A stretch of DNA of 64,000 nucleotides. It comes from Escherichia phage OES_C-1. The translations under genes were made by a program, and so were the position numbers. Shown here piece by piece: positions 30,879-32,522 of this stretch (positions are counted from its first letter, which is position 1; each line of letters opens with the position of its first letter). Location of the stretch: the sequence record PQ553088, one strand, 5' to 3'. The notes beneath the pieces were generated by a model, which did not search any database, was not told where the DNA came from, and saw only the letters and a program-made list of their open reading frames with translations.

Positions 30879-31658
30879 TTAATTAAAAATATATACTTCA
30901 TCAGTTCCATTCTTTTCTTTGGAATGATATATGTTAAAGACGTATTTTTTATTAAGATGCTTAACATTATATTTTTTAGACCATTCTTTAAGAAGAGTGT
31001 TTTCCTTTCCGTGATGCTCTAAAACATTCGACAGTCCAAATTTTATTCCTCTGTCATTTAAAGAATCTAAAAGATTTAAAAGGTCTTTTTCTTCTTCTTC
31101 TGACCAAAATTTATTATAATCAGCAACTGTTATAAGATATGGAGGGTCCACATATACAAAATCGCCGTCTAGAATTTTGACATCTTTAAAATGCAATGAA
31201 CTAAAGATTATTTTATCACAATTTTGTTTAAAGTGATTAAAGCGTTTTTCACTATTTTTGTTTATAGTTCTTTTTCCAAACGGAGTAGTAAAATTTCCTT
31301 TATCGTTTATACGAATCATATTACTAAACCCGTGAAAATGAAGAACATAAAGTAAAAGAGGATCTCTAGTTTTATTATAATCTTCACGTAATTTCAAAAA
31401 CTCTTCTTTTGATGTTTTTGATAGTTTGTATTGCTTTATTACTTTTAAAACGTCATCCCATGACACGCTAATAAGACGTTTATACATTTCAATAATTGGT
31501 TCTTGGATATCATTAGCCAATACAGGACCATCGACATTTAAAGATACTGATAAACCTCCGCAAAATAAATCCACGAATCTGTCATATTTTGGAAAGTGAG
31601 ACTTAAGTTCAGGTAATAATGATTGTTTATTACCTGTATACGCAATAGCTCCTAGCAT
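30879..31658 (-). CDS. dam: DNA adenine methyltransferase Dam
   Basis: 259-aa ORF with N6-adenine MTase DPPY motif (VDPPYL) and an N-terminal SAM-binding-like region. Confidence 0.9.
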
Positions 31659-32218
31659 TATATTCTCTCATTTATTGCAGCAAAAAACGAATTATATAAT
31701 TCTTCATCATATGTATTTGATAGTAATACTAACACGTTTTGTGATTTAGCATATTCATTAAACCTTGCTTGGATGGTTGGATTATCAGTAAATGATTCTC
31801 TTTTTGTCCATTTATTACGTGGATAATATCCGCATGGCAAAAAATCTAATATCATCAATGACACAGGGTTTTCAGTTTTTGTGTATTCTTTTAATTTCTC
31901 TTTATCTTCTAAATATATTCCAACCGAATCAATAGCTGTACCTCCACCAACTTGGTGTTTAATTTCAATTATATGCTTTTTACCGTTGCGAGAAATAACA
32001 ATATCAAATCTTCTAGTACGCTTCTTAGTGGTAAAATTCGAACAAAACAAATTATTTGATTTTTCAGTATCGTCAGTTAAAACCATTTTTTCTTGATAAC
32101 TAACTGAACAATCAGTGAAATATTCTTTTACTTTATTAAGTATAAAATTCTCAACTACGGCAGATATTTTATATGAATCTCCGTTTAAAGCCATTTCATG
32201 TACAATTTTATTAATCAT
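31658..32218 (-). CDS. hypothetical protein with PD-(D/E)xK nuclease-like motif, translationally coupled to dam
   Basis: 186-aa ORF; [19 protein letters not shown] fits the D...ExK signature; its stop overlaps the dam ATG by one nucleotide; own early promoter upstream. Confidence 0.5.
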
Positions 32219-32242
32219 TATATTATCCTCAACAGTTTATTT

Positions 32243-32273
32243 TATAATACCACAACAAGCTGAGAAAGTAAAC
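32243..32273 (-). promoter_or_regulatory. T4-type early promoter for the nuclease-like ORF and dam
   Basis: Minus strand reads GTTTAC, 18 nt, TATTAT. Confidence 0.45.
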
Positions 32274-32321
32274 AAATTTTGTAAAATTTGCGATAAATAT
32301 TAATTTAAAGGAGGACGACGC

Positions 32322-32522
32322 ATGGTACAAAAATTAATGGCACTTGTAGATGCCATAAAAGGTAATAAAAAACGTATAGCTTTTACTATTTCTGCTATGA
32401 TAGGAATTTTACTTTGGAATTTTGTTTTATCGCCAGTTGCTATTGCTCACGGTGTTAGTATTCCAGTAATTACTCTTGATACATTCGTAGATTTAGCATT
32501 TGCTTTAGTTGGGTTAATTTAA
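32322..32522 (+). CDS. small membrane protein, plus strand inside the minus-strand block
   Basis: 66-aa ORF with two hydrophobic segments and AAAGGAGG RBS 8 nt upstream; divergent from the 186-aa ORF and convergent with gene 61. Confidence 0.35.
   Translation: MVQKLMALVDAIKGNKKRIAFTISAMIGILLWNFVLSPVAIAHGVSIPVITLDTFVDLAFALVGLI

Follow-up and report, generated by a model that had tools for sequence, protein, structure and literature searches.

Is the Dam methyltransferase of T-even phages really a solitary enzyme? T4 Dam is among the best-studied solitary DNA methyltransferases, and yet, to our knowledge, what it does for T-even phages has never been clear. The question is raised anew by the dam locus of Escherichia phage OES_C-1 (sequence record PQ553088), of which we analysed a stretch of 64,000 nucleotides, here called the window. 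Directly upstream of dam lies an open reading frame (ORF) of 186 codons, ORF186, which a preliminary description of the DNA had likened, together with dam, to a restriction-modification (RM) pair. We found that ORF186 and dam form a cassette of about 1.43 kb, with gene 56 on one side and the conserved ORF66/primase genes on the other. In our judgement it is very probable that ORF186 has a PD-(D/E)xK nuclease fold and is functionally tied to Dam. Our preferred reading, which falls somewhat short of probable, is that the pair is an RM-type cassette in which ORF186 would cleave GATC DNA that lacks Dam methylation. The T-even dam gene is recast as one part of a mobile two-gene cassette, whose other part has the predicted fold, the putative active site and the evolutionary behaviour of a restriction enzyme.

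ORF186 belongs to PHROG 8706, which carries no functional annotation, and its product is a ‘hypothetical protein’ in every listed record that annotates it; a full-text literature search found no paper on it. The ratio of nonsynonymous to synonymous substitution rates (dN/dS) for ORF186 was 0.10–0.19, and ORF186 is a real gene under purifying selection. The low dN/dS and the presence of an intact ORF in 146 records together rule out a decaying pseudogene.

The restriction-endonuclease-like signature described earlier was found at residues 71–89. The AlphaFold2 model of ORF186 (predicted local distance difference test score, pLDDT, 85.5; predicted template modelling score, pTM, 0.83) is a single domain with an alpha-beta-beta-beta-alpha-beta core, as in the PD-(D/E)xK nuclease superfamily. 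In this model E23 is placed on the first long helix (residues 15–33), D72 on the second strand (67–77) and E85-x-K87 on the third (80–88). The superfamily is recognized by an aspartate and a (D/E)xK motif on strands 2 and 3 that are conserved within the family, and ORF186 has these in D72 and E85-I-K87. In a nine-member alignment extending down to 32% identity, the invariant positions were E23, R69, D72-I-V-I, K81-H82, E85-x-K87-H88-Q89, G93-T-A-I-D-S98, P118, S120, D125 and G130. Of these, E23, D72, E85 and K87 are the putative catalytic residues. The best fold match of the model was a restriction enzyme. The assignment of ORF186 as a PD-(D/E)xK, restriction-enzyme-like protein is solid, and structure prediction and fold search thus bear out the nuclease-like character claimed for it. 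The protein is also comparable to the small homodimeric Type IIP enzymes of the MunI/EcoRI type, both in size (the matched MunI chain has 200 residues) and in having, behind an N-terminal helix with a glutamate, D-X12-ExK on successive beta strands. MunI, which recognizes CAATTG, is however a bacterial enzyme with only 13% sequence identity to ORF186, and the recognition elements of the two are not comparable.

By its sequence, the partner gene encodes a Dam in the strict sense, which is nearly the same protein as T4 Dam, a GATC-specific enzyme. Its product matched Pfam MethyltransfD12 (PF02086; E 9e-51, 173.5 bits, cutoff 22) and TIGR00571 dam (E 1.5e-69, 234.7 bits, cutoff 114.85), and scored 577 bits over all 259 residues against the solved T4 Dam structure 1YFJ. 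More distant matches were obtained with E. coli Dam (E 1e-19) and DpnM (E 2.7e-12). The dam of the window and that of T4 are therefore the same gene; the difference is that in the window and in T2 it still has a nuclease-like partner upstream, whereas T4 has only a remnant of this partner.

All the ORF186 homologues that we found, in 154 phage records and five metagenomic contig types with identities down to 32%, lie directly upstream of a Dam gene. The pairs that could be placed are those of Tequatrovirus (including T2), Dhakavirus MX01, the metagenomic contigs L004, L005, L006–L009 and L010, and the Klebsiella Jiaodavirus KPV15. In every case the nuclease gene overlaps or abuts the D12/Dam gene, the sole exception being T2, where a frameshift leaves a gap of 13 nt. 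In KPV15 the pair (the nuclease there being ORF190) occupies a different locus, between denB/rIIB and ndd. In the window the stop codon of ORF186 overlaps the dam start by one nucleotide, as had been described, in the sequence TAATG, with base 31658 common to both genes; the two appear to share one early promoter and to be translationally coupled. The pairwise identities of the nucleases and of the Dam proteins were correlated (Spearman 0.85 over 28 pairs), indicating that the pair has descended together. The nuclease gene is thus adjacent to a methyltransferase gene and inherited with it, as in a Type II RM system.

The distribution of the two genes was then considered among about 506 Tequatrovirus-type records. 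The dam gene was present in 182. Full ORF186 was present in 146, always inside a complete dam-ORF186-ORF66-61 block, and a further 34 had dam with only a C-terminal remnant of ORF186, as in T4. No Tequatrovirus-type record had ORF186 without dam. This is the pattern of a Type II RM system, where the methylase may stand alone but the nuclease never does. At megablast sensitivity, about 320 of the records were without dam. In RB14 (Tequatrovirus) and AV113 (Mosigvirus), which lack dam, gene 56 is followed directly by ORF66 and 61. In Jiaodavirus the pair was found in 6 of 151 records, and in the others both genes are missing as one block. Since RB14, Mosigvirus and about 320 of the Tequatrovirus-type records have no dam, the accessory unit consists of ORF186 and dam together. 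Alignment of both window flanks to the 56/ORF66 intergenic region of RB14 bounded the cassette from ‘AAGCAAT’ to the ORF66 Shine-Dalgarno sequence. The proposal of accessory cargo in a conserved backbone therefore holds for ORF186, but the cargo includes dam and excludes ORF66. The coupling to Dam that was likened to an RM pair is supported by the adjacency in all homologues, by the co-descent and by gain and loss as a block.

A different arrangement was noted at the Jiaodavirus site in Klebsiella phage KP179 (L013 1091–3391). Here a 210-aa ORF with the motif DIVASK...LVIDVK and a weak match to Hjc (E 7e-4) overlaps a second D12 methylase gene, annotated as M.MjaIII-like, which is followed by Dam. 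Membership of this ORF in the ORF186 family was not detectable (hhalign probability 0.4%), and it is apparently a second, independent pairing of a nuclease-like protein with a Dam-type methylase.

The alleles of T4 and T2 show what can become of the pair. A three-way DNA alignment of the window, T4 and T2 showed that T4 lacks 549 bp (±3 nt) comprising the promoter, the ribosome-binding site (RBS) and codons 1–158 of ORF186 (window 31741–32289). The deletion is flanked by the imperfect repeats ATCGCAAA / ATCACAAA. The last ~21–28 codons of ORF186 are kept in front of dam, and a remnant corresponding to residues 159–179 was detected by tblastn; the T4 annotation (AF158101.6) has no gene in the 309 bp between 61 and dam. 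The earlier statement that T4 has nothing comparable between dam and 61 is thus right in that the gene is lacking, but overlooks this remnant. Because the 3′ codons remain, T4 represents a derived state rather than a naive one; it was the nuclease that was lost first, and the alignment indicates that the ‘orphan’ Dam of T4 is what was left over after deletion of the nuclease gene. On this evidence T4 derives from an intact form by deletion, and the pair is still intact in T2 and about 150 sequenced relatives. In T2, a T-run shorter by 1 nt changes the last seven residues of ORF186, and the ORF ends 13 nt before dam. Miner and Hattman, in J Bacteriol in 1988, reportedly found that T2 has, compared to T4, an insertion of 536 bp 5′ of dam with no detectable homology, which we take to be the segment missing in T4.

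Among 24,736 Pfam families the top matches of ORF186 were DpnII (E 0.002, 17.9 bits) and RE_BanI, both below the gathering threshold. The DpnII match recurred in five of nine family members (best E 8.3e-5) and spans profile positions 152–235 of 278, over the catalytic core. The PADLOC model REase_II, for Type II restriction endonucleases, was also matched (E 3.3e-5), as it was by four of nine members. When the ORF186 family was compared to a DpnII alignment with hhalign, an E value of 3.5e-4 was obtained, but with a probability of only 37%. This alignment pairs E23 with E152, D72 with D201 and E85 with E214, and places RFDIVI...IEIK against RFDFVI...IEVN. When a hidden Markov model of the ORF186 family was run on 120 real DpnII proteins, each of them scored higher than any of 2400 shuffled sequences (median 10.8 bits for the proteins, maximum 7.8 for the shuffles). 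ORF186 itself reached 15.7 bits, a score attained by none of 2700 shuffles. These comparisons used real database proteins, retrieved with a DpnII bait sequence that was itself checked by Pfam (335.7 bits).

The likeness to the DpnII/MboI-family Type IIP enzymes (PF04556) lies in the catalytic core, where the active-site E, D and E align and the motifs RFDxVI ... IExx ... GxG are common to both. It extends to the genes around: the partner methylase in both systems is a D12/Dam-family GATC enzyme, the window Dam being homologous to DpnM, and the nuclease and methylase genes are adjacent. In contrast to the DpnII system, the order here is nuclease then methylase, and there is no second methylase. 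From these sequence comparisons, a specific kinship of ORF186 and DpnII is plausible but unproven.

The ORF186 family is very small. A phmmer search of 1.84 billion representative proteins gave 10 matches, and word-indexed searches gave 10 with a single sequence and 12 with a profile, so that exhaustive searches of 1.84 and 5.8 billion proteins yielded about a dozen sequences. IMG/VR contained one ORF186 locus. No homologue was found in 185,579 bacterial species genomes (GTDB scan) or by tblastn of plasmids. Sequence searches of the PDB gave no match and an NCBIfam search gave only noise. Two metagenome proteins, P0008 and P0010, have the last 30–108 residues of ORF186 joined to unrelated N-termini (epimerase-like and AsnA-like); these are probably chimeric assemblies rather than real fusions.

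We favour an RM-type cassette because of the nearness to the DpnII family, the strict linkage to Dam, the pattern of gene states and the deletion in T4. On this reading ORF186 would be a compact single-domain endonuclease, of the same general build as small Type IIP restriction enzymes, that cuts DNA at or near GATC sites lacking Dam methylation. The phage’s own DNA would be shielded by its own Dam and possibly also by glucosyl-hydroxymethylcytosine. That it cleaves, at which site and which DNA are what we infer here; the substrate would be DNA in the infected cell with little or no methylation, whether from co-infecting phages without Dam, from another foreign source or newly replicated. Selfish behaviour may explain in part why the cassette persists. 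We class the pair as Type II RM-like, in a phage-restricted minimal form carried by a virulent hydroxymethylcytosine (hmC) phage.

A number of points weigh against this. No restriction-enzyme family match of ORF186 reaches its curated threshold, the 17.9 bits for DpnII being below the required 23, and the hhalign probability was low, as given above. In the reverse test the two most divergent family members had no DpnII signal. With 186 residues against about 288, ORF186 lacks the N-terminal ~140 residues of DpnII and so does not have the full-length DpnII architecture (about 280 aa), and it has ExK where DpnII has ExN. The Foldseek searches of PDB and BFVD gave only generic PD-(D/E)xK matches. 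Unlike DpnII, the family was found in T4-like phages only, with no bacterial relative in GTDB genomes, plasmids or the protein searches. A nuclease gene placed before its methylase gene would be a risky order for a cellular RM system, and the T2 allele, by uncoupling the ORF186 stop from the dam start, implies that the pair can do without tight coupling. E. coli, Shigella, Yersinia and Klebsiella, the usual hosts, are Dam-positive, and a nuclease blocked by GATC methylation would therefore spare resident host DNA. The case for an RM-type cassette is drawn from sequence and predicted structure.

There are three rival explanations. The cassette could be spread by ORF186 as a selfish homing-type endonuclease, cutting a site in cassette-free relatives (the 56/ORF66 junction or a nearby gene) and driving its own copying in co-infection, with Dam as a passenger or a self-protection device; we consider this unlikely. 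It would resemble the free-standing seg/mob endonucleases of T4, which are also optional intergenic genes, polymorphic among close relatives. Indeed, the cassette is present or absent at a fixed intergenic site among near-identical genomes, the homing endonuclease SegF lies in the neighbouring interval of T4, one gene away, and in Jiaodavirus the cassette has a different intergenic site, at which KP179 holds another small PD-(D/E)xK-like ORF with a D12 methylase. However, Seg and Mob belong to the GIY-YIG or HNH enzymes rather than to PD-(D/E)xK, and have no methylase pairing. Homing has no need of a strictly conserved, coupled methylase partner across divergence down to 32% identity, and the loss of the nuclease with dam kept in T4, like the lack of nuclease-only genomes, fits RM logic better. 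Less to be expected still is a non-restriction partner of Dam. ORF186 would then bind DNA with weak catalysis or none, or be a nuclease of repair or recombination; it would either modulate how active or how specific Dam is on hmC DNA or have a part in replication or repair. The resolvase and repair nucleases Hjc, Mus81/XPF and Bax1 are among its generic PD-(D/E)xK neighbours, the cassette lies among the replication genes 56, 61 and 41, and the T2 allele has been kept without stop/start coupling. Such a role sits poorly with the invariance of the full catalytic set E23, D72, E85 and K87 across the family and with a restriction enzyme as the best fold match, and T4 Dam works without ORF186, T4 having only the remnant.

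We give a low probability, slightly below that of a non-restriction role, to the opposite use of methylation, in which ORF186 would cut Dam-methylated or hemimethylated GATC, or nick it like MutH. Host cytosine DNA would then be attacked and the glucosyl-hmC DNA of the phage spared, with Dam completing or marking the substrate. Methylated GATC is abundant in the DNA of the Dam-positive hosts, the nuclease is always linked to Dam, and T-even phages are known to destroy host DNA with the cytosine-DNA-specific DenA and DenB, the gene for the latter flanking the KPV15 cassette. Nevertheless, ORF186 is a single 186-aa domain with no separate methyl-reader domain. According to an annotation note, this Dam also methylates the DNA of the phage, and the phage would then be a target itself unless hmC protected it fully. 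That the nuclease never occurs without Dam, whereas Dam often occurs without the nuclease, is a prediction of protection and not of activation. The closest sequence family, DpnII, is blocked by methylation (PMC12707154) and not dependent on it.

For an RM-type cassette in a virus, the clearest precedent is offered, by analogy, by the chloroviruses, which encode small restriction enzymes adjacent to their own methyltransferases and whose orphan methyltransferases are thought to have arisen by nuclease loss (PMC7019647). In pairs such as R.CviAI/M.CviAI (GATC) the virus-encoded nucleases are likewise unusually small and always beside the methylase gene, and the orphan viral methylases are regarded as left over in the way that the T4 Dam appears to be. 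The likeness drawn here is one of description. Chloroviruses have a eukaryotic host, whose unmethylated DNA is degraded by nucleases carried in the virion. In the case of ORF186, Dam methylation is already present on the host DNA and the phage DNA is hypermodified, so that the target must differ. If the nuclease is active, common virulent coliphages carry an RM system of their own, and the question becomes what it attacks when the host is Dam-positive, be it rival phages, plasmids or nascent DNA. It matters as well for phage-phage exclusion and for how safe T4-like therapeutic phages are and how they behave. An improbable version is that ORF186 is an active GATC enzyme adapted, like Dam, to hmC DNA, and serves phages of the T2 type as a weapon against co-infecting Dam-less T-even relatives. 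If true, it would be a phage-against-phage RM system in a virulent hypermodified phage, would give the T-even Dam its first purpose and might contribute to the extreme GATC depletion of Dam-less relatives (observed/expected ratio, O/E, 0.15–0.28).

GATC is the most under-represented of the 256 tetranucleotides in the window, with 72 occurrences against about 207 expected (O/E 0.35; values for the window span 0.30–0.35); TCGA is next at 0.56. For the cassette-free relatives the O/E was 0.28 in RB14 (positions 1–50000), 0.23 in Jiaodavirus PKO111 and 0.15 in Mosigvirus AV113. A footprint of the cassette is thus ruled out as the origin of the depletion, which is a group-wide trait because relatives without dam and ORF186 are equally or more depleted. 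These ratios do show that it is costly for these phages to carry unmethylated GATC. Counter-selection of GATC in enterobacteriophages is ascribed to host Dam/MutH.

ORF66, which had been counted as part of an extra module with ORF186, instead belongs to the backbone: it falls in PHROG 2024 and adjoins the primase gene 61 in 692 phage records across genera, with about 50% identity in Mosigvirus; its annotated names are RB32ORF030w and RB69ORF029w. Its description as a plus-strand membrane ORF with a strong RBS agrees with the data. The Shine-Dalgarno sequence AAGGAGG (32308–32314) lies 7 nt upstream of the ATG, the protein is hydrophobic from about residue 19 to residue 66, and dN/dS was about 0.1–0.3 for most unsaturated pairs (comparisons with L010 reached 0.69). 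ORF66 is a real gene under purifying selection. It is convergent with gene 61, and the two stop codons overlap on opposite strands. A late-promoter-like GATAAATA is found upstream of it at 32292–32299, and an nATAAATA motif occurs about 25–30 nt upstream of the ATG in the window, MX01, RB14 and AV113. From these features we infer that ORF66 is a late-expressed small membrane protein. It had also been called the only convincing plus-strand gene in about 58 kb of minus-strand genes, which fits our finding that, of four other long plus-strand ORFs examined downstream of 6.1 kb, none matches a PHROG.

Two further observations concern ORF66. T4 (AF158101.6; L001 2273–2473, minus strand of the locus) has an intact, unannotated 66-aa ORF that is 92% identical to it, within the 309 bp that the reference record leaves empty between 61 and dam. 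The cassette was seemingly inserted between the late-promoter-like motif of ORF66 and its Shine-Dalgarno sequence (window 30839–30878 compared to 32290–32308; L014 1740–1800): the RB14-type motif AATAAATA is decayed on the left flank of the cassette, and a fresh GATAAATATTAATTTAA (TATAAATA in MX01) is present at its right end.

The order at the locus is soc, two small ORFs, 56 (dCTPase), dam, ORF186, ORF66, 61 (primase), 61.1, a 61.2-like ORF, sp and 41, all on the minus strand except ORF66 (Table 1). In the 2.7-kb interval around ORF186, identity is 100% with Escherichia phages OES_C-2 and OES_C-3 and 97–98% with many other Tequatrovirus genomes. The early promoter GTTTAC/TATTAT proposed at 32243–32273 corresponds to a site that is indeed there; its TATTAT is preceded by TG, and it is conserved in T2 and lost with the T4 deletion. 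It is however a consensus match only, since a scan of the AT-rich stretch found 18 such sites compared to 16.2 in shuffled sequences. Between gene 61 and this promoter-like site is a hairpin (32337–32356) with a 7-bp stem, including 3 GC pairs, and the tail TAATTTTTGT, which by its position would separate gene 61 transcripts from the ORF186-dam unit.

Table 1. Coordinates of the cassette and of neighbouring features in the window
Feature	Position	Strand	Basis
dam: GATC-specific DNA adenine methyltransferase, 259 aa, downstream cassette gene	30879–31658	−	Pfam, TIGR00571, likeness to T4 Dam
Two-gene cassette (dam, ORF186 and promoter), approximate extent relative to cassette-free RB14	30879–32308		Flank alignment
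ORF186: small single-domain PD-(D/E)xK, Type II restriction-endonuclease-like protein, 186 aa	31658–32218	−	
Segment deleted in T4, 549 bp (±3 nt): ORF186 promoter, RBS and codons 1–158	31741–32289		Three-way DNA alignment
Shine-Dalgarno sequence of ORF186, GAGGA, within ...TGAGGATAATATAATG	32226–32230	−	Sequence reading
T4-early-type promoter-like site of ORF186-dam: (G)TTTACT, 17 nt, TG-n-TATTAT	32244–32273	−	9/12 match and TG extension
ORF66: conserved small membrane protein, backbone	32322–32522	+	phrog_2024, conservation, hydropathy
Terminator-like hairpin and T-run, downstream of 61, antisense inside the 5′ end of ORF66	32337–32356	−	Pattern match only
Gene 61: DNA primase, 342 aa, backbone flank	32519–33547	−	

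Elsewhere in the window, the interval 9011–9623 between motA (8375–9010) and gene 52 (9624–10952) has no minus-strand ORF of at least 90 aa; a plus-strand ORF of 130 aa starting with ATG lies at 9056–9448 and has no PHROG match. Between soc and 56, the window has two ORFs on its minus strand (69 and 66 aa) at 29894–30300; in T4 this place is taken by segF, a homing endonuclease gene. Both ORFs are also present in T2, where they are annotated as ‘head protein’ and ‘virion structural protein’.

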